A stretch of 64,000 bases of DNA. It comes from an uncultured virus (IMG/VR IMGVR_UViG_3300031182_000003). Taxonomy: Duplodnaviria > Heunggongvirae > Uroviricota > Caudoviricetes. Each line of letters opens with the position of its first letter. The first letter of the stretch is position 1. The stretch lies in IMG/VR virus record IMGVR_UViG_3300031182_000003; one strand, 5' to 3'. The position numbers were made by a program, and so were the translations under genes. This document shows, piece after piece, positions 9,913 through 46,388 of this stretch. The notes under the pieces were generated by a model. The model ran no database searches. It saw nothing but the letters and a program-made list of their open reading frames with translations, and was not told the DNA's origin.

Positions 9913-9923
9913 GAGGTGTACTC

Positions 9924-10001
9924 ATGCGCAGACGCATTGGGTTGCAGTGGATTTTGCTTGCTGTTGCAATCATTTCGTATGCACTCGTCGCTCTCATCTG
10001 A
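9924..10001 (+). CDS. 25-aa hydrophobic membrane peptide
   Basis: GGAGGTG RBS; MRRRIGLQWILLAVAIISYALVALI. Confidence 0.5.
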   Translation: MRRRIGLQWILLAVAIISYALVALI

Positions 10002-10104
10002 TAAAATGCCGCTGTTTTGGCTGGTAAATCCAGACGAAGTTGTGTATTATAAAGGGGGAGGGACGTTACATAAATCGCCTCTTTACGTGACATTGCAAGG
10101 GTAG

Positions 10105-11874
10105 GTGAAGCAAGTGGGCGCACAGACCATCTGGAGATGCAATGATGCTGTTATCAGCGGCGAGAATCCGGCAATCGAACTGCTTGAGATGCGCGGGATT
10201 GAAGATCCTGCCGACTTTCTCAAGATCACGAAGAAGAAGCTCCACAACCCGTACAAGATGAAGGACATGAAGAAGGCCGTACAACGTATCACACAAGCCA
10301 TCAAGAATGGCGAGAAGATTCGCATTTATGGCGACTATGATGCCGACGGCGTTTCTTCCACATCGCTATGGGTGATGATTCTCCGGGAACTCGGAGCAGA
10401 TGTGAGCTACTTCGTGCCCGACCGGTTCAAGGATGGTTACGGTGTCAATAACAAGGCGATCACTGACTGTCACAAGCAGGGCGTTCAGCTTATCATCACA
10501 TGCGATACCGGTATTACGGCTATTGAGCAAGTGCAGTTTGCCAAATCGCTTGGCATGGACATCATTGTGACCGATCATCATGAACCCCAACCGGTAGATG
10601 CATACGATGAAGCCTTGCAGAAGATTGGACAAGTCGTACACAACGCCACCAATGAGGCATATCTCATTCCTGACACTATCGTTGTCAATCCCAAGCGCCC
10701 GGATTGCAAGTATCCATTCAAATCACTTGCCGGTGTTGGCGTATCGTTCAAGATTCTTTGTGCGGTATGCGAGAAGATTCACCCCACCGGCAGAGCCGCC
10801 GCTTACGCTCATATGGACATCGTTGCGCTCGGCACGTTTGCTGACCAAATGGATGTCATTGATGAGAACCGTGTAATCGGCAAACTCGGGCTCAAGATGA
10901 TGAAGAAAACGAAGAATCGTGGCCTCTACCAGTTAATTAGGGCCAATGATCTCGCCGACAAGAAGCTGTCATCCAAGGATATCGGATGGACGATTGCCCC
11001 CTGCATCAACGCCGCCGGACGCATTGTATCGGCGACGGATGCGGTGGAGATGCTCATCTCCAACAACAAGCTTGATGCCTACCGATGCGCGAAGAAGCTT
11101 GTGGAAATCAACGAAGAACGAAAGAAACTCACCAAGAAGTACGTTCAATCCATCATTGAGGCCATTGAGTCTGAACAACAGGACGATCCAACTGCGATCA
11201 TTGTGCATTATCATCCCGGTGTGCCGGAAGGCATCATTGGGTTAATTGCAGGCAGGATCGCCAACCATTTCTACAAACCTGCCATCCTGCTGTCAGACAG
11301 CGAAGAACCAGATATCTATAAAGGGTCGGCACGTTCGATCAAAGGGTTCGACATGTTCGGAGCGCTGATGCATCAGACGAGCATCATGGAAGGTTTCGGC
11401 GGACATACAATGGCATGTGGCCTATCCGTCCATAAAGACAACTTCGAGCAATTACGGGCACGCCTTGAGCTTTACGCCGAAACGATTCTGTCGAACGAAG
11501 ACCTGCAACGCAAGGTGTACATTGACTGTATCATCGAAAACGGCAAAATTCTCGACATCGACTTCGTAAAGGATATCCGCAGGCTTGAACCCTTTGGCAA
11601 TGGAAATCAGCGGCCCACTTTTATGATGAGAAAATTAAAGGTGATCCGCGAGATGCCTGTCGGAGAGGAGAAGAATCATTTGTGGGCTTTGCTCAGCGAC
11701 GGCAAGACAACGTTCTCGACAATCGGCTTCTGGCTGTATGACAAATACGTCGCTCTGGGCAAACCGCAAAAGATCGACATCGCGTTCTTCCCCAACCTGA
11801 ACGAATATCCCAAAGGCTCGGGAAAAGTGTCTGTTCAGCTTGAACTGGAAGATATCCGAAAGGCCGCAAAGTGA
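10105..11874 (+). CDS. recJ: ssDNA-specific exonuclease RecJ
   Basis: GDYDADG, ITCDTG, TDHH, NAAGR, KGSARS, GGH, LEPFGNGN motifs. Confidence 0.95.
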   Translation: MKQVGAQTIWRCNDAVISGENPAIELLEMRGIEDPADFLKITKKKLHNPYKMKDMKKAVQRITQAIKNGEKIRIYGDYDADGVSSTSLWVMILRELGADVSYFVPDRFKDGYGVNNKAITDCHKQGVQLIITCDTGITAIEQVQFAKSLGMDIIVTDHHEPQPVDAYDEALQKIGQVVHNATNEAYLIPDTIVVNPKRPDCKYPFKSLAGVGVSFKILCAVCEKIHPTGRAAAYAHMDIVALGTFADQMDVIDENRVIGKLGLKMMKKTKNRGLYQLIRANDLADKKLSSKDIGWTIAPCINAAGRIVSATDAVEMLISNNKLDAYRCAKKLVEINEERKKLTKKYVQSIIEAIESEQQDDPTAIIVHYHPGVPEGIIGLIAGRIANHFYKPAILLSDSEEPDIYKGSARSIKGFDMFGALMHQTSIMEGFGGHTMACGLSVHKDNFEQLRARLELYAETILSNEDLQRKVYIDCIIENGKILDIDFVKDIRRLEPFGNGNQRPTFMMRKLKVIREMPVGEEKNHLWALLSDGKTTFSTIGFWLYDKYVALGKPQKIDIAFFPNLNEYPKGSGKVSVQLELEDIRKAAK

Positions 11875-11893
11875 TCACCGGAAAGGTGAAATC

Positions 11894-12463
11894 ATGTGGC
11901 TTATTATTCTGATCGTTGACAATCTTGTACTTCTGGCCCTGTTCTTGTGGTATCGCAGACAGTACCGCCGCAAGCTTGAGGAAGTGCGCAACTTGATTAC
12001 GCGCGACCCGCTGACAAAACTGTATAATCGGCGCGGTTTTGAAGACATGCTGATGCAAATCCGCAGAATGTCGAGTCATCGGGAGCCCTTTGCCGTTCTG
12101 ATGATCGACGTGGATCATTTCAAGTCAATCAATGACACGTATGGTCATTGCTTCGGCGATGCTGTTCTGCGAGTCATTGGTATGCTGATCGAAGATGAAT
12201 GTAAGGGCAACGGAATCGTTGCCCGATTCGGCGGCGAGGAGTTTGTTGTTATCCTCCCGCAAGTCACTCGGGAACAGGCCGTTCTTGTTGCTGAACACAT
12301 CCGAAATCGAGTTCGCACCCATGTCTTTGATTCGCATCCTGAACTGCGAATCACCGTCAGCATTGGCATTGGCTTGAGTCAGGAAAGCGGAGCGATTGTG
12401 GATAGTGCGGACAAGAAGCTTTACCTTGCCAAGAATGCGGGTCGGAACAAGATCATTGTATAA
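11894..12463 (+). CDS. Membrane-anchored diguanylate cyclase (GGDEF domain)
   Basis: N-terminal TM helix; DPLTKLYNRR, IDVDHFKSINDTYGH, RFGGEEF, ADKKLYLAKNAGRN. Confidence 0.93.
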   Translation: MWLIILIVDNLVLLALFLWYRRQYRRKLEEVRNLITRDPLTKLYNRRGFEDMLMQIRRMSSHREPFAVLMIDVDHFKSINDTYGHCFGDAVLRVIGMLIEDECKGNGIVARFGGEEFVVILPQVTREQAVLVAEHIRNRVRTHVFDSHPELRITVSIGIGLSQESGAIVDSADKKLYLAKNAGRNKIIV

Positions 12464-16005: not shown

Positions 16006-16893
16006 ATGCCGAGGCTACCGGGATACACAAAGCGGTTAAGCCCGAGCAAGCTCATAGGCCGCGTGGATTTGCATTATCAAAGCGGCAACAGTGACAAGGT
16101 GTATATCCTTGAGATTGCTCAGGATCCGACCACGAATGACTTTTACCTCATGGCTTTTCACGGTCGGAACGGTTCTACATTGCGCGGAACCCATTACGGC
16201 ACCTTTAGCAATTTCGATGCGGCCAAAGCAAAGCTTCGTACCATTGAAAGATCGAAGTTGCAGAAAGGCTATCAGTTGATAAACGACGAAGGACTGAATG
16301 GGAACAATCCGGCTTCATCATTCCAGACCAGTCAAGGCAACTCCAACCTTAGCACGAGTGCTTTCCTTCGTAGCCGGATGAAAACCATCAATTTCACCCA
16401 TCTGAATGATTCGGAGTTTAGGTCACGATTTGTGGTGAGCGACGATTTCATCCTTCACCGGATTCCGCATATGCGTTTGGTATATGCGGCGGCAAACAGC
16501 GCCGGATGGACGATCTTCGACGCTTATAACTCCAGAAATATGTTCAGACATTGGAACCACATGGTGGGCCGGATCCCGAAGGATCATGATGGTCTCATAT
16601 GGTTTGGCATGTTCAACGATCAGGATACGCAGTTCATTATCCTTGACGTTGTTTATCATCCGCAGATTCAAAACATCTACAAGTCCGAATGGAAAGACCG
16701 CAGAAGGCTGATGAATGTCATCTACGACCAATTGTTTCCCGGTGTCGATCCCTACGACACTTCAAATACAATGTACTTCGCCGAATACTACTACGACGAT
16801 AAAATCGTGGAGTTCACAGTGTCGCGTGGTATATGGATAGCGAGAAACATAAAGCATCCATTCAAGGCGGAGTTCTTCGTCACAACCAAATAG
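16006..16893 (+). CDS. WGR-domain protein with uncharacterised C-terminal region
   Basis: SDKVYILEI...HGRNGS...SKLQKGY WGR-like N-terminus. Confidence 0.7.
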   Translation: MPRLPGYTKRLSPSKLIGRVDLHYQSGNSDKVYILEIAQDPTTNDFYLMAFHGRNGSTLRGTHYGTFSNFDAAKAKLRTIERSKLQKGYQLINDEGLNGNNPASSFQTSQGNSNLSTSAFLRSRMKTINFTHLNDSEFRSRFVVSDDFILHRIPHMRLVYAAANSAGWTIFDAYNSRNMFRHWNHMVGRIPKDHDGLIWFGMFNDQDTQFIILDVVYHPQIQNIYKSEWKDRRRLMNVIYDQLFPGVDPYDTSNTMYFAEYYYDDKIVEFTVSRGIWIARNIKHPFKAEFFVTTK

Positions 16894-16904
16894 AAAAGGA
16901 GGCG

Positions 16905-17594
16905 ATGTCCGTGGGCATCTTCTCAAGGATTCGCGACGTGTTCCGGGGAAGGGTAAACGACATCATCGACCGCGCGGAAAATCCGACGGTCATGTTGAAC
17001 CAATATCTCCGGGACTTGGGCCGTGACATCCAAAAGGCTCACGACGCGCTCGCTTTGCAGATGGCGGTGGAAAACCAGCTCCTGAAGGAGTATCGGGACG
17101 CCGAAGCATTGGCAAAGCAACGCGATGAACAGGCCATACAAGCCCTGAAACTGGGCGACGAAGGCTTGGCAGAACGCTGTCTGCTGGATAAGCACCATTT
17201 GCTTCAGAAGGCAGAGGCGTTCAAACAGCAGTACGAGACGGCGCGGGCCAATACGCTCGCATTCCGTCAGCAGTACGACCAACTTCGCGCCGACTACGAA
17301 AAGGCGAAGAACGACCATCGTATTCTGGTCTCGCGCCACGAGTCGGCCAAAGCGCTTGAGCAACTCCATCGCACGATGGGCAAGATCAACATATCCAGCG
17401 TGATGAACAACTTCGAGCGGATGGCTCGGCGTGTTTCCACGATGGAAGCTCGGGTGCAAGCGTCGATGGAACTGTATCGTTCGGAGCGTCAACTTCAGAC
17501 GGATCTGAACAAGCTTACCGGCAGACAGGCCGTCGATGCGGAGATTGCGGCATTGCGCCAGCGTTTGGGCTTGCCGACAGCCGCAACTCAATAA
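16905..17594 (+). CDS. pspA: PspA/IM30 family protein
   Basis: GIFSRIRDVF...NDIIDRAENPTVMLNQYLRD, GDEGLA, FERM; coiled coil. Confidence 0.88.
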   Translation: MSVGIFSRIRDVFRGRVNDIIDRAENPTVMLNQYLRDLGRDIQKAHDALALQMAVENQLLKEYRDAEALAKQRDEQAIQALKLGDEGLAERCLLDKHHLLQKAEAFKQQYETARANTLAFRQQYDQLRADYEKAKNDHRILVSRHESAKALEQLHRTMGKINISSVMNNFERMARRVSTMEARVQASMELYRSERQLQTDLNKLTGRQAVDAEIAALRQRLGLPTAATQ

Positions 17595-21582: not shown

Positions 21583-22926
21583 ATGGCAAAATCCGTACTG
21601 GCGCAAGAAGAAGAACTCGACTTCAACGACGGCGACTTCGTTATCGGAGACGATGAGCAGGAGGAACAGGACGAAGTGCCCGAGCGCCGCGCCAAGAAGA
21701 AGAAAAAGAAGAAGGTCAACTATCAGGCGTTGGAACAACTCGCGCTCGATGCGGTCGATAAACTGAAGGATTTGGGTTCTGAAATCTGCGACCGCGTGTT
21801 CGAGCGGGAAGCTGTCGTGAAGGACATCATGCTGGCGCTCATCGCCAAGGAGAACATTCTTCTCATCGGCCCGCCGGGAACGGCAAAGACGTTACTGGCG
21901 GAACTCGTGGTACAAGGCATCGAAGACGGCGTTGCCTTCAAGTGGATGATGAACCGGACGACCGATCCGTCCGATATCGTCGGCCCGTATTCGATCAAGG
22001 CGATGGAAAATGACCAGTTCCTCCGCATCACGACCGGTCGCTCACCGGAAGCGCACGTTCTGTTCTATGATGAAATCTTCAAGTCGAACGAACCGGCGCT
22101 GAACTACCTGCTGTCGATCCTGAACGAAGGCTACTTCTACAACGACGGCAAGCAAGTGAAGGTCGCACGCCGTCTGGCGATTGCGGCATCGAACGAACTG
22201 CCGGACACCGAAGATCTCAATGCGTTCTTCGACCGGTTTATCTTCCGGCATTGGGTGGACTACGTGAAGGATCCGCAAAACCGGATTCTCATGGGCCGCG
22301 CCGCGCGGGAGGAGAAGAACCCGACCATCAAGAAGAAGACGATCAAAACGAAACTCACGCTCGAAGAAATCGACGCGATGCAGAAGGTCGTCCATATGGT
22401 CGAGTTTCCGGCGATGATCGAAGCCAATTACGACCGGCTGATCCGTGACCTGAATCAGAATTACGGCATCAGCGTCTCCGACCGGAGGTATTACAAAGGC
22501 CAAGTCGCCATGATGGCGCACGCCCTGCTGAACGGTCGGATGCGTGTCAACAACGACGACTTCCAAGCCGTGACGTATATTCTCGGCAATACCAAGGCCG
22601 ACATCGAACATGTCGAGAAGGAAGTCGGCAAGTACAAGAATCCGCATGAAAACACGCTGAAGGAATACGTCAAGAAGGCGCAGGAAGTTCACGACAAGGT
22701 CTTCTCGATGGCAGACAACCGCACAGCAATGGCTGGCGAAGCCGTCACCGCAAATGCGACGCTTCAGGAAATCCTCGTAAAAATGGAGGACGAAATCAAA
22801 GAAGCACGCAAGGCGGGTGTAGATACACGACCGCTGGAGAAGATGATCCAGCAAGTCGAAGACATGATGGCGAAGATCAACGAGGAGTGCCTGCGCAAGA
22901 CTCAGCGGGCTCAGCGCAAATGGTAA
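21583..22926 (+). CDS. MoxR/RavA-type AAA+ ATPase
   Basis: GPPGTAKT, FYDEIFKS, ASNELP, FFDRF, VSDRR. Confidence 0.9.
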   Translation: MAKSVLAQEEELDFNDGDFVIGDDEQEEQDEVPERRAKKKKKKKVNYQALEQLALDAVDKLKDLGSEICDRVFEREAVVKDIMLALIAKENILLIGPPGTAKTLLAELVVQGIEDGVAFKWMMNRTTDPSDIVGPYSIKAMENDQFLRITTGRSPEAHVLFYDEIFKSNEPALNYLLSILNEGYFYNDGKQVKVARRLAIAASNELPDTEDLNAFFDRFIFRHWVDYVKDPQNRILMGRAAREEKNPTIKKKTIKTKLTLEEIDAMQKVVHMVEFPAMIEANYDRLIRDLNQNYGISVSDRRYYKGQVAMMAHALLNGRMRVNNDDFQAVTYILGNTKADIEHVEKEVGKYKNPHENTLKEYVKKAQEVHDKVFSMADNRTAMAGEAVTANATLQEILVKMEDEIKEARKAGVDTRPLEKMIQQVEDMMAKINEECLRKTQRAQRKW

Positions 22927-22946
22927 TTTCATGACACGGGGCCATA

Positions 22947-23162
22947 ATGGCCCCGATTTCGTTTGCGAGAGAGGTGAATTACGTCGATCATGTCATTAAG
23001 ACGCCCGGCGGCGTTACGTTGCGCGGTTGGCGGCTTGGTGAGAGCGACCAAATGGCGCGTGGCAAGTACAAAGATCGGCGCATCATTCAGCCCGATCAAT
23101 ATACATTCATCGCGCGGCGCGGCGTAAGCAGGGAGGAAGTGGGCCTCGACCAATTTGTATAA
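22947..23162 (+). CDS. Small hypothetical protein
   Basis: Fills gap between ATPase and VWA genes; start uncertain. Confidence 0.4.
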   Translation: MAPISFAREVNYVDHVIKTPGGVTLRGWRLGESDQMARGKYKDRRIIQPDQYTFIARRGVSREEVGLDQFV

Positions 23163-23194
23163 GACGTGTTACCATTGGGGATACTAATGGTAAC
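23157..23194 (+). promoter_or_regulatory. Recurrent promoter/operator motif copy
   Basis: GTATAA...GTTAC-N17-GTAAC with internal GGGGATACTA. Confidence 0.7.
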
Positions 23195-23202
23195 GAAGGG
23201 AA

Positions 23203-24987
23203 GTGAACGTAATGGACAAGGATTTTGAACTCGAAGACAGCGAGGAGATCGTCGAGAAAGCGCCCGCCAGAGGCAAGAAGATCCATGAGATTCTCGGGCT
23301 CAAGGAAGACCCGACGACGAAACTCTCGCCGAACTCCATTGACCTCAATGAAATTGACCGTGAAATCTATCACGATTGCGTACAGCGATATCCGGCAATG
23401 GCCGACAATCTGGAAGCGGGCCTTCAGGAGTACGCTCCGTTCGACCATTTGTCGGAGGATATCTTCAACAGCCTGTTCAAGTACAACGTCAACCTGAAAG
23501 ACGAAGACGAAGTGATGGCAAAATCGCAACTTAACCACAAGCTGATGGGCCAACTGCTGGAGACGGAGGAGTATCAAAATCTCCGCAAGCACACGCAATT
23601 TGATCTGCTGGCCTCCGCCATCGGGACGGAAGTTCTCCAGACTTCTGCGATGGAGAAGATCATGCAGTACAAGCAAGCATATCTCCAGAAGTTGCAGACC
23701 GGCCAGCATGTGGACGGCGCGGACGCTGGTGAACTGATTGAGATGCTCAACAAGATGTCGCAAATTCAATCGCAAATCGACGCGCTGGAGGCGCTCAATG
23801 GCCCCGGCGGCCCGGGCTTGACCAAGAAGCAGGCAATGGAGCTTGCGAAGCTCAAGCAGGACTGGAACGATATTGTGGAAGCGTACGAGCAGAACTATAT
23901 CGGCCAGCAACAGCTTCAGCAGGGTATGCAACAGGCCGTTCAGCAGGCTACCAAATCGGCGGCGGTGCAGGTTGGCGAAGTGAAAGACATCATTGAGGCG
24001 TGGGGGTTCGGCGAAGGCTCGCACGACCGCAAGATCAGCCTCGATCAGCGGAAGAAGGCTATCGAACGGGTGCGGCGTTCCAGACGGCTCAGAGACCTCA
24101 CGGACTTGATCGGGCGTTTCAAAGCACTGGCGATGCGCAAGAAGAAAAAGCGGATCCCGGATGGTCACGAGATCAAGACGGTTGAACTCGGAAACAAGCT
24201 GGAGAACATCATGCCGAGCGAACTTGCCAAGCTCACACATCCGGTGATGAAGAAGGACTTCATGCGGCGGTATCATCAAAAGCAACTGATGGTTTACAAG
24301 AAGGAAGACAACAAGACCGTCGGACGCGGGCCGATCATTGTCTGTCATGACAAGTCCGGCTCCATGCGGGGCATCAAGGATGACTGGTCAACCGCACTTA
24401 CGCTTGCGACGCTGGAAATCGCACAGAAGGAGAAGCGAAATTTCGCTTATATCCCGTATGAAGACAAGGTGCTTCAGACCAAGGACATCCGTGCTGGTGA
24501 ACTCGATCCGCAGGACGTTCTCGACATCGCCGAGATGAATGCTGATGGCGGCACGAACTTCATGATGCCGCTGGAACGGGCGTTGAAGTGTCTGGAAGAC
24601 TCGTTGTACAAGAAGGGCGACATTCTGTTTATCACCGATGGTCAGGCGGCGGTCAGTCCAGAGTTCCTTAATCACTTTAAGAAGGTGAAAGAGGAGAAGC
24701 AGTTTTTCGTCACCACAGTCCTGATCAACATCGACGGATGGGCGTCCCGTGGAGGCGTTGAGCCGTTCAGTGATAGTATCACGACAATCTCGTCCGTAGC
24801 GGATCTGGACGAAGCTAACGCCGAGAAAATCTTCAACATCATCAAAGACAAAGACAAATTTGATCCGCAACCTCAACCGAAAAGCAATAATGGCTCGGCG
24901 GTTGCGCAGGTTGTTCAGAACGCCCAAAGTGCCGCCATGATCGACCCCGGAGACGATCTGTGGGAAGATGAAGATGACGGCTATTAA
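23203..24987 (+). CDS. ViaA-like VWA-domain protein
   Basis: GPIIVCHDKSGSM MIDAS, GGTNF, ILFITDG; paired with the RavA-like ATPase. Confidence 0.88.
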   Translation: MNVMDKDFELEDSEEIVEKAPARGKKIHEILGLKEDPTTKLSPNSIDLNEIDREIYHDCVQRYPAMADNLEAGLQEYAPFDHLSEDIFNSLFKYNVNLKDEDEVMAKSQLNHKLMGQLLETEEYQNLRKHTQFDLLASAIGTEVLQTSAMEKIMQYKQAYLQKLQTGQHVDGADAGELIEMLNKMSQIQSQIDALEALNGPGGPGLTKKQAMELAKLKQDWNDIVEAYEQNYIGQQQLQQGMQQAVQQATKSAAVQVGEVKDIIEAWGFGEGSHDRKISLDQRKKAIERVRRSRRLRDLTDLIGRFKALAMRKKKKRIPDGHEIKTVELGNKLENIMPSELAKLTHPVMKKDFMRRYHQKQLMVYKKEDNKTVGRGPIIVCHDKSGSMRGIKDDWSTALTLATLEIAQKEKRNFAYIPYEDKVLQTKDIRAGELDPQDVLDIAEMNADGGTNFMMPLERALKCLEDSLYKKGDILFITDGQAAVSPEFLNHFKKVKEEKQFFVTTVLINIDGWASRGGVEPFSDSITTISSVADLDEANAEKIFNIIKDKDKFDPQPQPKSNNGSAVAQVVQNAQSAAMIDPGDDLWEDEDDGY

Positions 24988-25819: not shown

Positions 25820-25907
25820 GGGATTCTAATGGACTAATCAAGGGATGGGTTTCCCTGAAGGTGGTCGCTCCACCGGAGTCCGGCGGTTCGAGTCCGCGGT
25901 TTCCCCA
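25820..25907 (+). ncRNA. Non-canonical tRNA-like RNA with branched arm
   Basis: GCGG-TTCGAGT-CCGC T arm; imperfect GGGATTC/GTTTCCC acceptor; GGACT/AGTCC encloses two hairpins. Confidence 0.5.
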
Positions 25908-25911
25908 ATAT

Positions 25912-25987
25912 GCGCTCGTAGTTCAGTTGGTCAGAACGTCGATCTCTAAAATCGGAGGCGCAGGTTCGAGTCCTGCCGGGCGCACCA
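25912..25987 (+). tRNA. tRNA with anticodon CUA (amber suppressor)
   Basis: 76-nt cloverleaf: GCGCTCG/CGGGCGC, GTTC/GAAC, TCGAT-CTCTAAA-ATCGG, GCAGG-TTCGAGT-CCTGC, ACCA end; CTA at 25946-25948. Confidence 0.9.
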
Positions 25988-26000
25988 TTTATCCTCTGCC

Positions 26001-26045
26001 ATCTAAAATCGCGTGTCCCGGGTTCGATCCCCAGCGAGGCCACCA
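26001..26045 (+). pseudogene. 3' half of a tRNA (Phe-like body, TCTAAAA loop remnant)
   Basis: CCGGG-TTCGATC-CCCAG-CGAGGCC-ACCA with no matching 5' half. Confidence 0.6.
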
Positions 26046-26066
26046 TGATTTTGAAGGTGATTGCAC

Positions 26067-26735
26067 ATGAAGAAACTTGACATTCAAAAAGGGCAGAAAT
26101 ACAATGATTGGACTGTATTGCATCGAGTATATGATCATAACTTGAAGACAAACAGACCAGTATGGGCATGTCGATGCAAATGCGGGACAATTAGAAATAT
26201 TATACAAAAGGATATACCTAAAGCGACCAGATGTAGAAAATGCGAAGGTGCAATCAAATCCATCAAGTACACAAAGCATGGACAATCGAAGAACGGTCGA
26301 TTACAAAAAGGAACACGATTGTATCGTATTTGGCAAGGCATGAGAACAAGATGCAATAATCCAAACAGTAAAGATTACAAATGGTATGGTGCCAAAGGTG
26401 TTTCTGTTTGTCCTGAATGGGATGATTTTAATGAATTTTACAAATGGGCAATTCAAAATGGCTATGATGACAGTAAGACCATTGATCGAATAGAGAGTGA
26501 TGGCCCATATAGTCCGTCTAATTGTAAATGGTCTACAACTAAGGAGCAATTAAGGAACAGAGAATGTACACGCTATATTACGATTAACGGCGTAACCAAA
26601 ACAATGAGTGAATGGTCTGAATGTAGTGGTATAAATTATCAGACTCTCAGGACTAGAGTAGACAAAAATTGGCCCGAAGAACGTCTACTTGATCCTCCAA
26701 TTCAATCACATATCCCCATTGAATGGCCCGACTAA
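26067..26735 (+). CDS. Freestanding HNH-like (phage homing-type) endonuclease, AT-rich
   Basis: WACRCKCG, RLYRIWQGMRTRCNNPN, YGAKGVSVCPEW, TIDRIESDGPYSPSNCKW. Confidence 0.8.
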   Translation: MKKLDIQKGQKYNDWTVLHRVYDHNLKTNRPVWACRCKCGTIRNIIQKDIPKATRCRKCEGAIKSIKYTKHGQSKNGRLQKGTRLYRIWQGMRTRCNNPNSKDYKWYGAKGVSVCPEWDDFNEFYKWAIQNGYDDSKTIDRIESDGPYSPSNCKWSTTKEQLRNRECTRYITINGVTKTMSEWSECSGINYQTLRTRVDKNWPEERLLDPPIQSHIPIEWPD

Positions 26736-26787
26736 GGGTACTCCGCCGCAAGGCGTTTACCAAATACATTTCAAGGAGTGATGTCAG

Positions 26788-27357
26788 ATGAAGGAGAAGC
26801 TGGACTTTCGTTAGGTGCCCGGCTCGCCCGCCAAGGTCGTTTTCTCGTATCAGCCTATCACCTTCTGTCGCGTCAATCCGCATCCGTGGGTTGTTCTCTA
26901 CAAAGGAGAACATTACTTTGCAGATGGCGTGAAGGTGGTTCCGGGGTGCGGAATGCGTGCGAAAGTTCGACCCAAAGCCCGATCACCGGCCTGTTTCATT
27001 GTTCCGAAAGCGTACGTGTCGTTTATGACAACTGACGAAGGAAGAACAATCGTAGTTATCCACAAACAGGAGGTATCGGACATGGAACAAGTATTGGTGA
27101 AGGTGGACAAGAAGACGCGAGTGGTGGTGCACTTCAACAAAAAACATAATGAGGATCCGTACAACATCCCGCCGTGGGTGATCAAATGTAACGGACAAAC
27201 CCATTATGTGCATCACTTCGAGGTTGACCCCGGTATCGGCTTCTCCAGCAAGGAAACGCCGGATAACGAGGCAACACGCGCTTCACTACTATTCCGCAAT
27301 TGTGTATTGACGATTGTGGAGAAGGATGGTAGTATAGAAGCGAGGATTGGCAGGTAA
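26788..27357 (+). CDS. Tandem-domain hypothetical protein with in-frame TAG at codon 9 (26812-26814); second domain has its own start at 27082
   Basis: AAGGAGTG RBS 7 nt before ATG 26788; MKEKLDFR*VPGS...; duplicated NPHPWVV/NIPPWVI domain; AGGAGGT before ATG 27082. Confidence 0.6.
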
Positions 27358-27420
27358 AACTGCCAATATTGTAACGGCGTGCTAAGGGGGCGGTTGCCTC
27401 TCGGTGCGTCGTTACACTCT

Positions 27421-27510
27421 GCGGGAGTAGCGAAGTCGGATAAACGCAAGAGTCCTGCAAGACTCTGCTCCAGAGGAGCTTCGGTGGTTCAAATCCACCC
27501 TCCCGCTCCA
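27421..27510 (+). tRNA. Atypical tRNA: Leu-like long-variable-arm body, GCA in an 8-nt anticodon loop, U73 (Cys-like)
   Basis: GCGGGAG/CTCCCGC-T-CCA; AGAGT-CCTGCAAG-ACTCT; GCTCC/GGAGC variable arm; GGTGG-TTCAAAT-CCACC. Confidence 0.75.
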
Positions 27511-27511
27511 T

Positions 27512-27588
27512 TCTCACTCATCTGGTGGATGGCGCGTCGCAGTCTGCGCAGACGCCGCGCGGGGTGTTCGATTCCCTCAGTGAGAGCC
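27512..27588 (+). ncRNA. tRNA-like RNA lacking an anticodon loop
   Basis: TCTCACT/AGTGAGA acceptor, CATC/GATG D-like stem, extended GCGCG/CGCGC arm, TTCGATT loop. Confidence 0.55.
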
Positions 27589-27592
27589 CCTA

Positions 27593-27681
27593 TGGGATGT
27601 AGGCAATGGTAAAGCCACCCCGAAGTGATCGGGGACAACTGAAAGGTGCTGGAGGTGTTCAAGTCCCTCCCGTCCCTACCA
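27593..27681 (+). ncRNA. tRNA-like RNA (loop AAGTGAT, no U33, bulged T stem, ACCA end)
   Basis: GGGATG/CGTCCC, GGC/GCC D stem, CCCCG/CGGGG stem, GGAGG-T-G-TTCAAGT-C-CCTCC. Confidence 0.6.
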
Positions 27682-27682
27682 T

Positions 27683-27782
27683 GCGGTGGCCGCCCGGCAG
27701 GCGGCGTCGCCAACAAATCTGACGCGGCGTGCGTTGAAACATTGTGGGCGTCGATGAAGGTTCAACTCCTTACCCACCGCCA
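27683..27782 (+). ncRNA. tRNA-like RNA with large insertion replacing the anticodon loop
   Basis: GCGGTGG/CCACCGC, CCGCC/GGCGG, AAGG-TTCAACT-CCTT; ends ...CCGCCA. Confidence 0.55.
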
Positions 27783-27898: not shown

Positions 27899-28153
27899 AT
27901 GATTACGAAGGAGCAACATGAAATCATCATTACGCTGGCCGAGGCTGGGCTCAACAATCGGCTGGTGAAAGTGGAATACGAATATCTAACTCCCGGACGC
28001 GGTGGCCGACAAGTCATCTTGAAGCCAATACACTTTGTTCGCGGCGTGCGCGGTGGGGCTGACAAACTTCATGTCGTCGGATATGACCCGGAATCTGAAG
28101 GTATCCGGCAACTGGCCGTAAGCAACATTCACCGAATTGAAGTTATTGCGTAA
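27899..28153 (+). CDS. Small WYL-like domain protein
   Basis: VKVEYEY...RQVILKP...VVGYD...IRQLAVSNI pattern. Confidence 0.55.
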   Translation: MITKEQHEIIITLAEAGLNNRLVKVEYEYLTPGRGGRQVILKPIHFVRGVRGGADKLHVVGYDPESEGIRQLAVSNIHRIEVIA

Positions 28154-31321: not shown

Positions 31322-31822
31322 ATGCGACTGGTAGCTGATACCGAAGAAGATTATCAAATGCTGGCTCGTTTGCAACATCAAGTGACGCAACTGCTGAAGC
31401 AGGAGCAGGCCGATGGCGGCTCCGAGGTGCTGATCAGCACATTCAAACGCTTCATCAACACGCCGATTGAGAAATCGTACATGCGGCCCGGCCAGTCGGT
31501 GCAGGCGGCGAACACGTCGGCCATCATGGATACGGAAGATCGCGATCTCATTATTCCGTATATTGTTCACGCCGCCATCAATCGCAAGAAGATCGCTATC
31601 GAGTATTATTCCGACAAGAAGGGCATCTCGAAGCGTGTTGTTGAACCGTTCAATTGGAATGGCAACAACCTTGTCGCGTTCTGTCACGAAGCAGGGGCGT
31701 GGCGGCACTTCAAACCATCCAATATCCGGCGCATTGCTGTACTGGATGAGGACTTTGACCGCCCGGACGAAGTGCTGATTGTGGCATCGGACGCCAAGGA
31801 CAAAGCGGGGCTTGTGAAATGA
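31322..31822 (+). CDS. WYL-domain protein
   Basis: AINRKKIAIEYYSDKKGISKRVVEP...LVAFCH...WRHFKPSNI. Confidence 0.8.
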   Translation: MRLVADTEEDYQMLARLQHQVTQLLKQEQADGGSEVLISTFKRFINTPIEKSYMRPGQSVQAANTSAIMDTEDRDLIIPYIVHAAINRKKIAIEYYSDKKGISKRVVEPFNWNGNNLVAFCHEAGAWRHFKPSNIRRIAVLDEDFDRPDEVLIVASDAKDKAGLVK

Positions 31823-32289
31823 ACATCCCGATTCTGAACCGGGAGGAATACCTTCCTCCTGAACCCGTCTGTCTGGAGCATATGTTTGCTTTCTACGACA
31901 GTGAGAACGCCCATAGCAAACGTGCGCCGATGGTTGGTGATCCGAACGGCGAACCGTATATCGTTCAAATCCACGAACCCGGTTATTTTCGGTTGTCAAT
32001 TCTGATCTTCGCGGCCAGCGAGGAGGATGCCTACAACCGGGTGAAGTACGGATGCGAAGTCTTGCTGGCGAATGCTGAGAAACGGCTGAACGAATTTCTT
32101 TCGACGGCAGAGCCGAGTGTGCGTGCGCCGCACCATTATGAAGACCGGAAGTACCATCACGAGATTCATATATCCCGTGTGGCCGGTATTCTTCGGGAAC
32201 TCGAAAGCCGCAAACACCTCGTCATCGCGCCGTTCGATAAGCGGTTCGTCGCCAAAGTCCCGTGGGCACTTAACGATACAATCGGATAG
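31819..32289 (+). CDS. Hypothetical protein
   Basis: ATGA overlap with upstream stop. Confidence 0.65.
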   Translation: MNIPILNREEYLPPEPVCLEHMFAFYDSENAHSKRAPMVGDPNGEPYIVQIHEPGYFRLSILIFAASEEDAYNRVKYGCEVLLANAEKRLNEFLSTAEPSVRAPHHYEDRKYHHEIHISRVAGILRELESRKHLVIAPFDKRFVAKVPWALNDTIG

Positions 32290-32414
32290 TGCCCGATGTC
32301 GATCAATTGTATGACGCTGTCGCGTCAAGATTTGCAATGTACGATGCGAGATGAGGATGTGGTTATAAAGATTACCACACCCGATTACCACCCGCTGAAA
32401 GGAGATGAATCCTC

Positions 32415-33011
32415 ATGTCTGACAACAAGGTCTGTCCGTACTGCGGCAATGACTGGTTTCGTGTGTACCAGTGTATGCCGGTGCTCGTGAATCTGACGAC
32501 GAATGAGTGGCGCCCGCAGGTAGATCCGAACGCTCCGATACAATATCCGTCCTGCGCAAACTGCGAACGTCGCATCGAAGCATTCGTCACAGAGCAGTTT
32601 TTCCATGAAGTCATCTGTGACCCGAACTTCGACGATACGGCGGTAATTGTGATCCAGCAAGACAAAGCCAAGGACATCATCGGATTCTTGCGAGGCACAA
32701 AGCCGCTGAAGGATTATACCCTGCCCAACATGGTGGGCTTCTACGAAGAAGAACTGCTTGGCGGCGAATACAGAACCTCTATTGAAGTGCTCCAAACCGG
32801 CAAGCAGTATATCATCGTTGCGGTGTATTGGAAATCGTCCGAAGGCAAATGGGAAACCGTCAACACAAGAGCGACCCGTCTGCTTGGCAAACATGAGATC
32901 GAAGCGGACGGAAAGAAGTTTCAAATTATCGTCATCACATCCGAAGGCTACATCAGCGACGACGAATGTATAACCAACGTTACATCGGGAAATACTGATG
33001 GTAACGAATAA
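32415..33011 (+). CDS. Hypothetical protein with N-terminal zinc ribbon
   Basis: CPYCG...CANC; AAAGGAG RBS. Confidence 0.7.
   Translation: MSDNKVCPYCGNDWFRVYQCMPVLVNLTTNEWRPQVDPNAPIQYPSCANCERRIEAFVTEQFFHEVICDPNFDDTAVIVIQQDKAKDIIGFLRGTKPLKDYTLPNMVGFYEEELLGGEYRTSIEVLQTGKQYIIVAVYWKSSEGKWETVNTRATRLLGKHEIEADGKKFQIIVITSEGYISDDECITNVTSGNTDGNE
32968..33005 (+). promoter_or_regulatory. Recurrent promoter/operator motif copy (inside the end of a CDS)
   Basis: GTATAA...GTTAC-N17-GTAAC with internal GGAAATACTG. Confidence 0.65.
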
Positions 33012-36532: not shown

Positions 36533-36862
36533 ATGAGTCAATGCAAACATCTGCCCGGATACGAGAACCTTACGGTGCTTGGCGCACGTCTGATCGTCAA
36601 GCCGACGCCGCCGGAAGAAGTCACCAAATCCGGCATCATCATCGCGCACAATGCGCAGGAGCCGAAGTATGAAGGCACCGTCGTTGTCACAGGCCCCGGC
36701 GCACGGCTGGACAATGGTGTCAAAATGCCGATGGAAGTCGAGGTCGGCCAGAAGGTTATCTACTCGCGGCTCGCGGGCGTGCCGATTAACGTAGAAATCG
36801 GCGGCAAGAAGGAAGATTTGCTCGTGATCAACGAACGCGACATCATCGCCATCATTGAATAA
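36533..36862 (+). CDS. groES: Co-chaperonin GroES
   Basis: EEVTKSGIII, GTVVVTGPG, MEVEVGQKVIY, ERDIIAII. Confidence 0.92.
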   Translation: MSQCKHLPGYENLTVLGARLIVKPTPPEEVTKSGIIIAHNAQEPKYEGTVVVTGPGARLDNGVKMPMEVEVGQKVIYSRLAGVPINVEIGGKKEDLLVINERDIIAIIE

Positions 36863-39440: not shown

Positions 39441-39927
39441 GGTTCTGAACAAGAATGGCGTCCTCGACAGCTATACCACGCTCCCGAAGGCGAAGTCATT
39501 CGTGCGACAACATCGCTGTGTGTGGGTGTCTGAGGATACCATTCAATTGCAAATCGACAGCAAAGACGAGAAGCGCATGAAAGAGGAAGTGTGGGCCGAG
39601 GCTAATTACGTGTGCTATATCTGCGGAAGGCAAATGCACAGAGGGCATGAACTCTTGACCATCGACCACATGACTCCGAAGCGTCTCGGCGGTTCCCTGC
39701 TCAAGTTCAATTTGGCTTGTTGTTGCAAGCCTTGCAATGAAGAAAAGGGATGCCGGACTGTCGAAAGCTACACCGCCTACTTGCTTGCCCGCATATACGC
39801 TATGCTAATATGGTATGGGGTGATAAGAAGGAGGGATGTAAGTGGCGAAAGAATGTTGCGAACATCAAGAATCGACACCCAAGAAGGCCAAAAAACTGAA
39901 TACGAAAAAGCGCAAACGACCGGATAA
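39313..39927 (+). CDS. HNH endonuclease (start uncertain)
   Basis: CYICG, LTIDHMTPKRLGG, NLACCCKPCNEEKG. Confidence 0.8.
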   Translation: MSSRKNNKPKSHNRKKNCWSSPMMKGQMKNRAAKKKTSSSTIKVLNKNGVLDSYTTLPKAKSFVRQHRCVWVSEDTIQLQIDSKDEKRMKEEVWAEANYVCYICGRQMHRGHELLTIDHMTPKRLGGSLLKFNLACCCKPCNEEKGCRTVESYTAYLLARIYAMLIWYGVIRRRDVSGERMLRTSRIDTQEGQKTEYEKAQTTG

Positions 39928-42900
39928 ACTGCGGGTTGTGCATATCCACAACCACAGTATTTATTCGATCAGCGACGCATCGGCGAAACCCGAGGAGCTT
40001 GCAAAACGTGCGGCTGAAATCGGGATTGATACGCTGGTGCTGACGGATCACGGCAACATATCTGGCGTGATTCAGATGAAGAAGGCGTGCAAAAAGCATG
40101 GCCTCAAGTTCATACCGGCCTGTGAAATGTATGAATCCCCCGACCGGACAGTGAAGGACGCTTTCAAGAAAAGCAAGACGAAGCAAAGTGAGGATGAGGA
40201 AGTCCAAGACGGCATCTATCACATCACGATGCTTCCGGTCAACAACGAAGGTTGGGCCGCCTTGCAAGCGCTCATCGCCGACGCCAATACGGTAGGGTTC
40301 TACAAAAAGCCCCGGACGGATATGAAATTTATCGAGGAAAACGGCTACGGCAAGAACATCATCGCGACCAGCGGATGTCTGGCCGGATACATCCCGCGCC
40401 TGCTCCTCGCCGGGGAATATGAGAAGGCCAAGAAGGAAGCGATTCGCCGGAGCAAACTGTTCTACGGCTACTATCTGGAAATTCAGGATAATGGTAGCCG
40501 GGAGCAGGATATGGTCAACATGCAACTCATTCAGATGAGCGAGGAGACGGGAATCCCGCTGGTCTATGCCAAGGACGTGCATTACGTCCGGCCTGAAGAC
40601 AAGGATGCTCATCATACGCTCGTTGCGATGGGGCGTAGACAGACCATTTACGAATGCGCTCCTTATCTCGGCACCAATACCTACCATCTAGCGTCGGCGG
40701 AGGAAGTGTATGATTGGGCCGATGAGAACAACATCCCGTACGAGGCGATTGAGAACGCCTGCAAAATCGCCGACATGTGTAATGTCGATCTGGAACTCGG
40801 CAAAAACCTGATGCCGGAGTATCCATACTGCGAGGAAGGTCATACTCCGACAACGTACCTGCGGAAACTCATGTATGACAATCTCCTCGAATACGTCCAG
40901 AAGATGCGTAAAAAGAAGAAACGCATCAACATCAAGACGTACATCAAGCGCATCGAATCTGAACTGGACGTTATCGTCATGAAGGGGTTCCCTTCCTACT
41001 TCCTGATCCTGTGGGACATCATTCTTTGGGCAACCAACCGGAAGAAGTGGAAATCCTACGCACCGAACGCCGCGTGGCTAAAAGCCGACCCGGAAAACGC
41101 CAAATACGAGTTCTATCCGCAATATTATGTCGGCCCGGGCCGGGGCTCGGCGGCGGGCGCGATTACCGCGTTCCTGCTCGGCATCACCAAGCTCGATCCT
41201 ATCGAGTACGACTTCATGTTCGAGCGGTTCCTGAATCCGTATCGGAACAGTCCGCCGGACATTGATTGGAAGATAATGCTTGTAGCGTGATAATTGCAAT
41301 TTGGAGCCATAGATGATTTGATTACTGCCGGAGAATATATGTATCGCGATGCGACTATATACCTTGAACGCAAGTATGAACGCTACTGCATTATCAAACA
41401 GTCCCACGCTTCCGAGAGGTGGCGTGCGTACCCCGAATATGCTGGGAAGCCCTAAAGCCTCCATGCCAAAGCAATACTCGAAAGGGTATTGTGACGGAGC
41501 GAGAGCAGAAATAAGTTGGAGGATGATCCTGAACGTACAACCGAGCAGGATCGTGACAATGGGCAATCAGCAGGGATAGCCCTAAGTCCCAATTTGGGAT
41601 ATGGGAAGCCCCCAACGACTACCAAGGGGCGTGACCATACAAACAAGCCCTGTTTGGCGGAGCAGGGTGTATGGAGACGATGGTATAGTCTAGGCCGTCC
41701 ACGCAGTGACGTGGAGTTAAAGTACCCCGAAAGGGGCGGTGTAACCGACCGACTTCGACGGGACGAATCATGAAATGCTTCTCGACTTTGTGGCGCAACG
41801 CTACGGCAGAGACAGGGTGGCGCAGATTCTTACCTTTACGAAGTACAAGCTTCGCTCTGCCGTCAACGGCATCTGTAAGGCGCTGGAGAAGAAGGACAAG
41901 AGCGGTAAGGTGGTTGCCTACGGATATAAAGTCGCCGACGAGATCGGCGCGGTGCTGGAAATCGCGGGCGACCAAGGCAAGATGCCTGACCAGTCGGATT
42001 GTACTTACCAGAAGATGATGGAGATTGCCGAAAGGCCGGAAAAATACGAGGAGTATGGATCCGAGTTGCCGAAGTTCATCGAGGCATCCAAGGAGTTCCG
42101 TCGCCTCATGTTGAAGTATCCCGAGCTTAACGAACGGCTTGCCAAAATCGAAGGGTGTATCCAAACGTCCGGCATTCATGCGGGCGGTGTCATCATCTCG
42201 CGGCGACCGCTTGCGCTCGATTGCCCGACGATCATGCCGCGTGAAGATTCCAAGGCCGTACTGCCGATTACGATGTGGGATTATCCCGACTGTGAAGAAG
42301 TTGGCCTGCTGAAGATGGACTTGCTCCGTACGTCTACGCTTCGCATCATTTCGTTGACGTTGGAGTTGATTCGCTCCAGTACCGGCGAAGAAGTCGATCT
42401 GTACGAAATCGGACGTGACGACCCGGAAACGTTCAAATTCATTGCAGAGGGCAACACACATGGGTTGTTCCAAATCAACGGTGGCGGCATTACGAAGTAC
42501 ACCATGCAGGTTAAGCCCAAAACACAGGATGAGATCATCGACATTCTGGCGCTTTACCGTCCGGGGCCGCTCGATGCCGTGCTGGAGAATGGTAATACTA
42601 TCGCTCAACAGTACGTCATCAACGGTAGCCGGAAGCCGCAGGAGTACATGAAGGAGGTTCGCCCGGAAATCCGCGAGTTCCTGCGGAAGTCTCGGGGGCA
42701 GATGATCTATCAGGAACAGGTCATGAGCATCGTCCAGCGCGTGGCCGGATACAATCTCGGCCACGCGGACAGCTTCCGGCGCGTCATCGGCAAGAAGAAG
42801 ATCGCCGATGTAAAGAAGCTGTATGACGAGTTCATGTATGGGCACAAGTATGTCGTCAAGAAGTGGGAAAAACTGCTTGCCGAATACGACAGCCTGCCCA

Positions 42901-44258
42901 AGTTCAAAGATAAGGATGGCAACGAAGTCATCCGCGTGAAATCCAAGTATGACGGGAACGACATCGAACTGACTAAGCCGGAAATTCAGGCCGAACTGGA
43001 GGCAACCAAGAAGGCGATGGCGGCACACGTCATCCCGGGCGCACTCAAGATGGGGTACGACAAGAAGTTTGCCCGCAATCTGTTCAAGCAGATGGTGAAG
43101 TTCGCCGGGTACGCCTTCAACAAGCCGCATTCCGGGTGTTATGCGGACGAAACATTCCAGACCGCATACCTCAAGTGCCACTATCCGGTGCAGTTCATGA
43201 CCGCCCTTCTCAGCGTGCGCGGCGACAAGGCCGACAAGACGCTCGACAACCTGAAGGAAGCCAAGCGGCTCGGCATCAAGATTCTGCCGCCAGATGTAAA
43301 TCGTTCGTTCTCGGAGTTCGCACCGGAGAAAGACGGCATCCGATACGGCCTGCTGTCGATTGCCGGAATCGGTCAAGCGACGGTCAACCAAATCGTCAAC
43401 GAGCGAGAGAAGAATGGCCCGTACCAATCCTTCGACGACTTCGTACAGCGTCATACGTTCAAGGGAAGCCAAGTCAAACGCAACCACTACCAAACGCTGA
43501 TCTCCGCCGGATGTTTCGACCGGTTTGAAAAGAACCGGTACAAGCTCCTGAACTATTACAATTTCACCATCCGCAAGGACAAAGTGTGGACGGGTACGCC
43601 GGAGACTTTGGAGAAGGACAAAGCGAAAGCAACCCATTCGGTGAAGTGGAACGAGAAGGAGTTCAACGACAAGAAGGCGTTGGAGATGGAGCGTGAATTG
43701 ATCGGTGTGTATGTGTCCGGCTCCCCGTATGAAGACCTTCCGTTTACGCCGCTTCAAGATATGAAACTCTCCCGGCGGCGGGATAAAGTCTTCTACGATA
43801 TCGGAGGCCGTATTATATCGGCCAAGATCATCAAGACCAAGAAGGGCAAACCGATGGCCTTCCTCACACTGGAGACGCAGTTGGAGCCCATCGAGGTAAC
43901 GGTCTTCCCGGATGTTTACGATGAATACGCTCAGCACTTGTACAAGGACAATATTGTGGTTGTGCGCGGCTACAAGGAGGAAACCTACTACAAGGGCGAG
44001 CGGCAAGAAAAGTTCATTGCAAGCAAGATTCTCGTGCAGAAGACCAAAAAGCTGAAGCGTGAACTCGGCATCAACGATGAGCCCAAGCCGCAGACTCAAG
44101 AGGAGCCGGAACTGCCCGTCGTAGAGCAGATGAAGCCGAAGAAGCGCAAGGATCCGATGGCAGAACTGATGGAAGACAAACTGAAGGGTAAGAAGAAGCG
44201 GAAGGACGATCTGTCGAAGTATTTCGAGGACGACGATGAGGAGGAAGAAGCATTATGA
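39842..44258 (+). CDS. dnaE: DNA polymerase III alpha subunit split by a group I intron (exons 39842-41266 and 41748-44258; 1311 aa spliced)
   Basis: PHP motifs HNHS and TDHG, GRGSAAG, FERFLNP; splicing restores PDID|TDF; HAGG, KMDLL, YAFNKPH, C-terminal OB fold. Confidence 0.95.
41267..41747 (+). mobile_element. Group I intron without ORF (481 nt), extended P1 loop
   Basis: GAT|TG pairs with CAGTC (41399-41403); ATGCTGGGAA, AATCAGCAG, CAACGACTA, GGTATAGTCT core; terminal G. Confidence 0.9.
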
Positions 44259-46067: not shown

Positions 46068-46376
46068 ATGGCAAAGAATCGCAAGCGCGAAGGCGCAAAG
46101 GCAATGTTCGAGCAGTCGATTATTTATCTGCTGGATGCTTATCGTTCTGAAGGTAAATCGCCGGAACAGGCAAAACATCTGGTATTGCAGGACATCGAAG
46201 ATGCTCGGCAAAAGTATATGGAGGCTGACATCCTGCCGAAATCAGCCATCAGCGTATCCGATCCCAAACGGCTTTTGGAGGACATCCTCAAGGATGTGCA
46301 AAATCTTGGCATCAATCCCGTGGCAAAGAAAGCACTCCTGAATAAAGTCATCCATCTCCAAAAGATCTTGCAGTAG
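46068..46376 (+). CDS. Hypothetical protein
   Basis: AAGGAGGT RBS. Confidence 0.7.
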   Translation: MAKNRKREGAKAMFEQSIIYLLDAYRSEGKSPEQAKHLVLQDIEDARQKYMEADILPKSAISVSDPKRLLEDILKDVQNLGINPVAKKALLNKVIHLQKILQ

Positions 46377-46388
46377 GAGGTTTCACTC

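Follow-up and report, generated by a model that had tools for sequence, protein, structure and literature searches.

The 64,000-nucleotide stretch of DNA studied here (the window), from an uncultured virus of the Caudoviricetes (IMG/VR record IMGVR_UViG_3300031182_000003), probably contains a dedicated cassette in which a phage-encoded suppressor tRNA with anticodon CUA, tRNA(CUA), decodes a UAG codon in a nearby gene (position 26812 of the window) and thereby permits synthesis of the full protein in a phage that uses the standard genetic code. From comparison with related sequences, the window appears to hold one copy of a conserved and widespread phage cassette, made up of a tRNA(CUA) gene and small genes on the same strand that have a UAG within about their first ten codons. 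In most relatives these are a single-domain gene and a gene for a PTH2-type peptidyl-tRNA hydrolase; in the window there is a two-domain gene.

Under the mechanism proposed, ribosomes would start at AUG 26788, preceded by a Shine-Dalgarno sequence, and without the tRNA release factor 1 would stop translation after a peptide of 8 residues. Once the phage tRNA had been transcribed, processed and charged by a host synthetase, the UAG would be decoded and the full two-domain protein produced; the second domain alone may be made from ATG 27082 irrespective of the tRNA. TAG elsewhere in the genome would remain an ordinary stop, with the tRNA acting as the key to one or two linked genes, an arrangement equivalent to an amber gate or a feed-forward AND gate. 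Such a gate might set when the module is expressed or adjust its dose to the level of suppressor activity. Because the partner gene in relatives encodes a peptidyl-tRNA hydrolase, the favoured purpose is a role in translation or related to tRNA, with its timing or level tied to suppressor activity.

The putative suppressor tRNA

The initial annotation described a canonical tRNA of 76 nucleotides (nt) with a CTA anticodon and an encoded CCA (the coordinates of all features are given in Table 1), and two independent tools agree with it. ARAGORN calls this tRNA as one of two tRNA genes in the 64 kb, and it belongs to the Rfam family RF00005 with 71.6 bits (gathering score 29, E = 7e-15), as a cloverleaf above threshold with CUA in the 7-nt loop CTCTAAA, its charging and its decoding of UAG being predictions. 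The anticodon is unchanged in contigs from four public runs, and the same loop is common to nearly all of 39 distinct aligned phage tRNA(CUA) genes, which are otherwise diverse.

In a global comparison with 419 phage tRNAs, the closest sequences to the window tRNA are other phage tRNA(CUA) genes, which make up 20 of its 40 best matches and include that of G001 at 75% (here and below, L denotes relative loci, G001-G003 relatives read whole, P family protein representatives and X sequencing runs). A BLAST search returned tRNA-Trp, tRNA-Arg and tRNA-Asn matches alike, at 82-86%, with no single isotype favoured. Hence the earlier suggestion that the anticodon arm derives from tRNA-Trp (CCA to CTA) is not sustained. 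The wider idea of a self-contained readthrough pair loses this element; its remainder is strengthened by the linkage of tRNA and gene, the early TAGs that recur in two gene families, the exclusive use of TAG and the maintenance of the frame across it. There is a weak hint that the window tRNA might insert glutamine, from the Q found at the aligned place of the TAG in the TAG-free homologues P0009 and P0011.

A pyrrolysine system was considered and rejected: no pylS or pylBCD Pfam families were found among the 80 window open reading frames (ORFs) scanned, and the tRNA is a canonical cloverleaf. An atypical pylT shape is a criterion for a pyrrolysine tRNA, and the ARAGORN label 'tRNA-Pyl' is given to any CUA tRNA.

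The proposed gated gene and the persistence of its amber codon

As first noted, a gene that opens with MKEKLDFR-TAG continues beyond the TAG for 180 further codons in a frame open to a TAA at 27355-27357, the whole gene having 189 codons and encoding two domains. Three sites in the window fit the pattern of a Shine-Dalgarno sequence, a start, at most 15 codons, a TAG and at least 70 open codons, and that at 26812 is the sole one on the coding strand. The second domain copy was described as having its own ribosome binding site and ATG; both AGGAGG (27068-27073) and ATG 27082 are present and make a candidate start, and the corresponding Met is conserved in P0005 and P0006.

All 701 of 701 bases compared, TAG included, are identical in L117, a 208-kb metagenome contig (208,013 bp, JGI), which probably comes from the same assembly and is therefore not an independent confirmation of the TAG. 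Positions 25850-27400 of the window were also compared with contigs from four public runs belonging to other studies. In X5 (soil), a 99.5-kb contig extends over the whole stretch with 16 differences in 1551 bases, none of them in the TAG or the leader. A 506-nt contig from manure (X7, record 20) is about 88% alike over 26733-26955, and keeps the AAGGAG of the gated gene unchanged along with the ATG, the TAG and the following GTG. Among the differences listed for this contig (the stronger ones, with 23 weaker ones outside the list), those in the leader are 26792 A>T (K2M) and changes at 26800, 26805 and 26808, while those 3' of the TAG are 26818 (P>S) and synonymous changes at 26838, 26841, 26850 and 26856. 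Three of the four leader changes are synonymous in the 26788 frame, whereas none of the four is synonymous in the overlapping 26781 frame. X10 and a second X7 contig have about 103 diverged letters in place of the segment 26756-26859, and the TAG comparison rests on the other contigs. With the TAG present in contigs of X3, X5 and X7, the initial annotation's concern that it might be a sequencing error or a private nonsense mutation is settled, and these alignments confirm that it is neither an assembly error nor a private mutation.

DNA near-identical to 25850-27400 also occurs in runs X1-X20, from 16 studies of phyllosphere, soil, manure, bioreactors and anaerobic digesters; X10 includes a 208,809-bp contig with such DNA.

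Distribution of the cassette among related phages

A profile scan of IMG/VR found 348 relatives, of which the best 80 were kept and grouped into 47 clusters at 90% identity, each locus being taken with flanks of 2.5 kb. All of the first five IMG/VR loci with the protein have a tRNA(CUA) just upstream. Across the clusters, a tRNA(CUA) lies within 2.5 kb in 34/47, always on the strand of the gene, and it is the sole tRNA found in several loci. Each of the three relatives read whole has exactly one tRNA(CUA), which in G002 is adjacent to the TAG gene and 110 kb away from the main array, which has 26 tRNAs.

The domain gene has an early TAG (a start and 1-8 codons before it) in 19 of the 47 clusters, an internal TAG in two and no TAG in 26; the 19 comprise 17 assigned by rule and L070 and L085 assigned by eye, L063 and L081 having been rejected. 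The internal cases (L065 and L071) have the TAG inside the conserved domain (FHxNKAHxxDP-TAG-xIPPW), at a point spanned by homologues from 48 loci. At least one gene of the module bears a TAG in 37 of the 47 clusters. The resemblance to the window is close in L001, part of a complete 164-kb genome of 40% GC, in which AAGGAGG-N7-GTG AAA GTG GTT TTA AAT AAG CTA TAG ATT precedes the domain: codon 9 is the TAG, as it is in the window, the leader MKVVLNKL resembles MKEKLDFR, and the next in-frame start is 34 codons past the TAG, inside the domain. In L002, ATG AGC TAG ATA and then the domain are found 14 nt after the tRNA. Comparison of homologues bears out that the early TAG recurs in relatives and co-occurs with tRNA(CUA).

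The early stops collected from these loci are TAG in 45 of 45 cases and TAA or TGA in none, even though most genes of these genomes end in TAA (161/200 in G003). A purine follows the TAG in every case (A in 36, G in 9) against a background of 55% purine, the cases not being independent of each other. In E. coli, amber suppression is favoured when the next base is a purine. The codon following the TAG is ATT in 26 cases, ATA in 6, ATC in 2, GTA in 4, GTT in 2, GTC in 2, AGA in 1, AAC in 1 and, in the window, GTG; at least 10 of the 45 (GTA, GTT, GTC, AGA, AAC) are unable to serve as starts. The persistence of TAG in two families across phages of 27-57% GC, when 8 of the 9 possible single-base changes give a sense codon, argues for selection on the stop itself.

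The complete phage containing L001 also has a tRNA(UCA) of the opal-suppressor type (L001 1770-1843; G001 9739-9812). In the search for an opal parallel in G001, the gene after this tRNA was found to have no early TGA, and no target was found.

The peptidyl-tRNA hydrolase partner and cultured phages

A gene for a PTH2-type peptidyl-tRNA hydrolase recurs directly upstream of the domain gene, with 24 of 26 aligned members matching PF01981. A PTH2-like gene was detected by blastp in 28 of 49 loci (the 47 clusters, the window region and the RHph locus). In 24 of the 28 it has an early TAG, giving starts such as MK-TAG-INK, MTH-TAG-I and MKKH-TAG-V; three have none, and the remaining one, L094, is a putative match. 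The representatives P0007 and P0019 are PTH2-domain fusions. The window contains no PTH2-like gene (best tblastn E = 0.66), and the window protein, when tested for PF01981, has no Pfam match. In L074 there are two tandem PTH2-like paralogues (1350-2150 and 2155-2511), both starting MTH-TAG.

Among GenBank phages searched by tblastn, three (four records) have the family, all of Rhizobiales hosts. In the cultured Rhizobium phage RHph_I1_18, a Shine-Dalgarno sequence and ATG AGT GAG TTC ATG TAG AAC are followed by the domain (L115 2968-3216; MN988519.1 about 11003-11251), and an annotated tRNA-Pyl(cta) lies 12 nt downstream of the domain gene. This gene is absent from the GenBank annotation, presumably as a consequence of the TAG at codon 6. 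In Sinorhizobium phage Phosso the domain is encoded two genes downstream of a peptidyl-tRNA hydrolase, and there is no TAG. A cultured, non-pathogenic system is at hand in RHph_I1_18 on Rhizobium phaseoli.

A broader proposal, which can be put forward only tentatively, is that standard-code phages of soil, plant, freshwater and marine origin share an undescribed natural circuit, in which tRNA(CUA) would be the obligatory key for two linked genes, one for a PTH2 of archaeo-eukaryotic type and one for the partner protein that has no PDB fold match, both locked by a UAG at codons 2-10. The output of such a circuit would be set by the cell's capacity for UAG readthrough, and it could act as a timer, as an AND gate or as a means of matching a peptidyl-tRNA or ribosome-rescue function in dosage to suppressor activity. 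Iyer et al. (PMC7824862) propose that phage PTH2 recycles peptidyl-tRNA in ribosome rescue. If the circuit exists, at least some orphan phage suppressor tRNAs would gain a concrete target.

The domain family

The family has the consensus xIVFHFNKKHxxDxxIPxWVxKxKGxTxYVxHxxxxxGFSTKETPDNxHTKGS (the FHFNKKH..W..KETP domain), with variable N-terminal residues. Copy 2 of the window protein shares 38-68% identity with 40 family members and has every invariant residue. The tandem duplication originally read from the sequence is supported by the match of copy 1 to the family profile in hhalign (probability 88%, E = 2.8e-6, 79 columns), a weak match in which the motif residues are absent; P0005, 81% identical in copy 1, has the same two-domain build.

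Neither the window protein nor its domain has a Pfam or PHROG match. An AlphaFold2 model of copy 2 made with 41 sequences is all-beta, with a pLDDT (predicted local distance difference test) of 94.3. Foldseek found no PDB match for it at E <= 0.001, and a wide VIA search gave a best Z of 3.5; the ESM Atlas returned one unnamed cluster at 0.75. The missing PDB match is no proof of a new fold.

A whole-library profile search with the family returned 153 representatives at E <= 0.001. Approximately 26 of 150 representatives among the matches listed begin at the Met of a conserved PMW motif (three were checked: P0071, P0074 and P0085), as they would if a TAG upstream kept gene callers from recognising the true start. 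In terms of annotation, these proteins and the RHph_I1_18 record suggest that gene callers miss or shorten such genes.

Use of TAG elsewhere in the genomes

The observation that ordinary window genes still end in TAG stands: it terminates 16/109 crude plus-strand ORFs and 14/83 genes in greedy two-strand calls, and treating TAG as sense barely lengthens window ORFs. Three relatives were read whole, of which G001 and G003 are complete with terminal repeats and G002 is 76% complete. Their coding density under translation table 11 is 0.85, 0.92 and 0.94 (G001, G003 and G002, respectively), with no specific gain when TAG is read as sense, and TAG ends 68/247 crude genes in G001, 13/175 in G002 and 17/200 in G003. 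When 80 or more open codons are required on each side, there are 9, 1 and 1 TAGs as against 17, 7 and 13 TAAs (G001, G003 and G002). Hence none of the features of code-15 genomes looked for, namely many in-frame TAGs, a gain in coding density and the loss of TAG as a terminator, was found in the window or in G001-G003. A comparison of ORFs for in-frame TAGs between G001-G003 and the window covered 9-27 shared ORFs per genome and had low power.

Same-frame ORF runs in the window that are split by a TAG (9259-11874, 46068-47639 and 31819-32490) were also considered as candidates for readthrough and rejected as separate genes; these pairs include a DUF4326/SLOG gene followed by RecJ, and a small ORF followed by RecA.

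Alternative explanations

Several observations weigh against a dedicated gate. Ten of the 47 clusters have no TAG in either gene, seven of them still with a tRNA(CUA), and 10 of the 37 TAG-bearing clusters have no tRNA(CUA) within 2.5 kb. This implies that the link is strong without being absolute, and that the tRNA may have other targets. As the clusters are related to each other, their counts are not independent events, and they are drawn from the best 80 of the 348 IMG/VR relatives. When the full-length protein was folded with TAG as Q, the N-terminal domain and leader were of low confidence, residues 1-23 having a pLDDT below 50. The window is 64 kb of a 208-kb phage contig and has replication and repair genes only, with about 144 kb lying beyond it, in which late genes might be recoded. 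Finally, the TAG at 26812 and the GTG at 26815 abut, and as GTG is a normal start nearly the same protein could be made without the tRNA.

This last point bears on the explanation in which the leader is a mini-ORF that terminates at the TAG, with reinitiation at the abutting GTG (at AUU, AUA or GUN in relatives) and no part for the tRNA. Stop-start coupling is common in phages, the gene caller's start for P0005 lies 3' of the TAG position, and the codon after the TAG is ATT, ATA, ATC or GTG in 35/45 cases. ATT, ATA and ATC, which account for 34 of the 45 and count against a gate, are weak starts only; AUU is a known rare start codon. Reinitiation is plausible for the window yet weak for the family, and overall seems unlikely. 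Any stop should serve it, but TAG, which these AT-rich genomes use least often as a stop, accounts for all 45; in 10/45 the next codon (GTA, GTT, GTC, AGA or AAC) is no start, the cultured phage included; and two genes have the TAG inside the conserved domain. It also leaves unexplained the same-strand linkage to tRNA(CUA), seen even 110 kb from a tRNA array. The exclusive use of TAG, the non-start codons and the purine that follow it, its persistence and the proteins called from the PMW Met together argue for readthrough rather than a mere leader.

Were readthrough to occur, it might still belong to ordinary recoding of the code-15 kind, with TAG used as sense in late genes beyond the window and the present gene close to the tRNA by chance. 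Borges et al. (10.1101/2021.08.26.457843) describe recoded phages as keeping their replication genes standard while recoding late ones, and replication and repair genes are all that the window has; the same preprint ties recoding to low GC, whereas that of the window is 52%. No recoding signal is present in the complete G001 and G003 or in the 76%-complete G002, TAG ends 14-16 window genes, and the TAGs are found at codons 2-10 of two linked families rather than scattered along genes, such that little probability attaches to this explanation. It is also improbable that readthrough is real and has no regulatory role, the suppressor simply allowing neutral TAGs to drift into unconstrained N-termini and these surviving only in tRNA-linked genes because mosaic recombination would separate others from the tRNA. 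The variable N-termini of the family and the existence of TAG-free members (10/47 clusters have no TAG at all, and Q takes the place of the relatives' TAG in P0009 and P0011) are in keeping with drift. An unselected TAG should however decay fast, most single-base changes giving sense, yet it occupies the same place in two families, in phages of 27-57% GC with about 40-50% protein identity, and the strict purine after it (45/45) suggests that the context of decoding is under selection. A single in-frame stop is also the usual mark of a pseudogene or sequencing error, but independent assemblies retain the TAG, as does the variant of about 88% similarity, where changes on both sides are mostly synonymous, and the same architecture occurs in dozens of distant phages; a private nonsense mutation is scarcely credible. 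The dedicated suppressor cassette thus remains the preferred reading.

Comparison with known systems

Programmed readthrough is known from the Qbeta A1 protein and retroviral gag-pol, in which host near-cognate tRNAs decode a stop at a low rate to give a C-terminal extension. The cassette resembles these in that a stop would be read as sense in a defined gene, and differs in that a cognate, virus-encoded tRNA would open the N-terminus, all or nothing. The bar minigenes of phage lambda are free-standing two-codon ORFs that cause peptidyl-tRNA drop-off and are toxic to pth-defective hosts. The ATG-NNN-stop mini-frame beside a peptidyl-tRNA hydrolase gene in relatives is similar, but here its frame leads on into a conserved protein, and no stop other than TAG is used.

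Code-15 recoded phages, in which TAG encodes glutamine (crAss-like and Lak phages; Borges et al., 10.1101/2021.08.26.457843; Peters et al., PMC9523058), share with the window phage a phage tRNA(CUA), standard-code hosts, in-frame TAG and the idea of timing. They have tens to hundreds of TAGs in late genes and have lost TAG as a terminator, whereas the window phage keeps it as a stop and its cassette consists of one or two small tRNA-linked genes with a single TAG at codons 2-10. Another likeness is Xanthomonas phage XacN1 (PMC5852040), a large phage with two tRNA(CUA) genes and TAG as a stop. Its authors state that reading through annotated stops found no targets; the candidate target found in the present analysis is at the 5' end of a gene that is unannotated or given a wrong start, where it would be missed by reading through 3' stops. 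The tblastn search of GenBank phages found no members of the domain family in XacN1. Suppressor tRNAs are often present in non-recoding phages, and in the XacN1 report (PMC5852040) and the phiKp24 paper their targets are described as unknown.

The same logic has been engineered in E. coli as a synthetic suppressor-tRNA feed-forward loop, in which the target needs a co-expressed tRNA, an arrangement that abolishes leak and introduces a delay (PMC7969014). The window cassette would be a natural, conserved counterpart to this circuit. A full-text literature search returned recoded phages and orphan suppressor tRNAs and no description of the module, the supplementary tables of the Borges and XacN1 papers being outside its coverage. 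The cassette would provide a concrete class of targets for orphan phage suppressor tRNAs, namely short, usually unannotated or mis-started genes beside the tRNA that are locked by an early UAG. If correct, it would also be a natural equivalent of synthetic amber-gated circuits and would tie stop suppression to phage peptidyl-tRNA hydrolase.

The tRNA locus and neighbouring genes

The tRNA and the gated gene are about 0.8 kb apart in the window, compared with 23-250 nt in relatives, and between them lies an HNH homing endonuclease gene (Table 1); GC content is 0.43 at 26-27 kb against about 0.52 elsewhere in the window. Downstream of the gated gene is an aberrant tRNA-like gene, identical in L117 and L118, with an anticodon loop of 6 nt (8 with one stem pair fewer), for which ARAGORN gives a 2-base 'anticodon'.

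Table 1. Positions of the cassette components and adjoining features in the window
Feature	Position	Strand	Remarks
tRNA(CUA), amber-suppressor type	25912..25987	+	76 nt; A73; anticodon CTA 25946-25948; encoded CCA 25985-25987
HNH homing endonuclease gene	26061..26735	+	phrog_374, E 4.6e-54; between tRNA and gated gene; AT-rich insert
Shine-Dalgarno AAGGAG(TG)	26773..26780	+	AAGGAG 26773-26778; 9 nt before ATG 26788; this ATG 7 nt after AAGGAGTG
Leader, codons 1-8, MKEKLDFR	26788..26811	+	opened by ATG 26788
In-frame TAG, codon 9, proposed gate	26812..26814	+	kept in L117, X3, X5 and X7
Domain copy 1	26815..27081	+	divergent, motif-poor duplicate; begins with GTG right after the TAG
Internal AGGAGG-N8-ATG	27068..27084	+	AGGAGG 27068-27073, ATG 27082; from sequence; possible tRNA-independent start of copy 2 alone
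Domain copy 2, canonical	27082..27357	+	VHFNKKHNEDP..PPW..SKETPDN; ends with TAA
Aberrant tRNA-like gene	27421..27510	+	long variable arm; member of the decayed tRNA array; ARAGORN 'tRNA-???'; Rfam 43.6 bits

Pieces of a decayed tRNA array surround tRNA(CUA), at 25855-25910, 25988-26045, 27511-27600, 27594-27677 and 27683-27780. They include 3' halves (T-arm and CCA) without a 5' half, a tRNA-His-like pseudogene seen by ARAGORN in pseudogene mode only and a weak tRNA-Sec-like match (23.5 bits, E = 0.2). That only the suppressor is intact in this array suggests that tRNA(CUA) alone is under selection.

The identifiable genes of the window serve replication, repair and nucleotide metabolism, with no structural genes among them; they encode a split DnaE, a beta clamp, RecA, UvrD, a primase, RecJ, an SbcCD-like protein and a dUTPase. 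DnaE is divided between 39842-41287 (PHP and the start of the NTPase) and 41775-44255 (the rest of the NTPase, finger, HHH and OB), the gap of about 490 nt containing two small ORFs, so this may be a split gene or one with an intervening element. Other genes encode a GGDEF diguanylate cyclase (11840-12460), PspA/IM30 (16833-17591), a GroES-like Cpn10 (36533-36859) and a MoxR AAA ATPase with a 594-aa protein (21583-24984). Two small WYL-domain proteins are encoded just downstream of the tRNA region, at 27899-28153 and 31322-31822.

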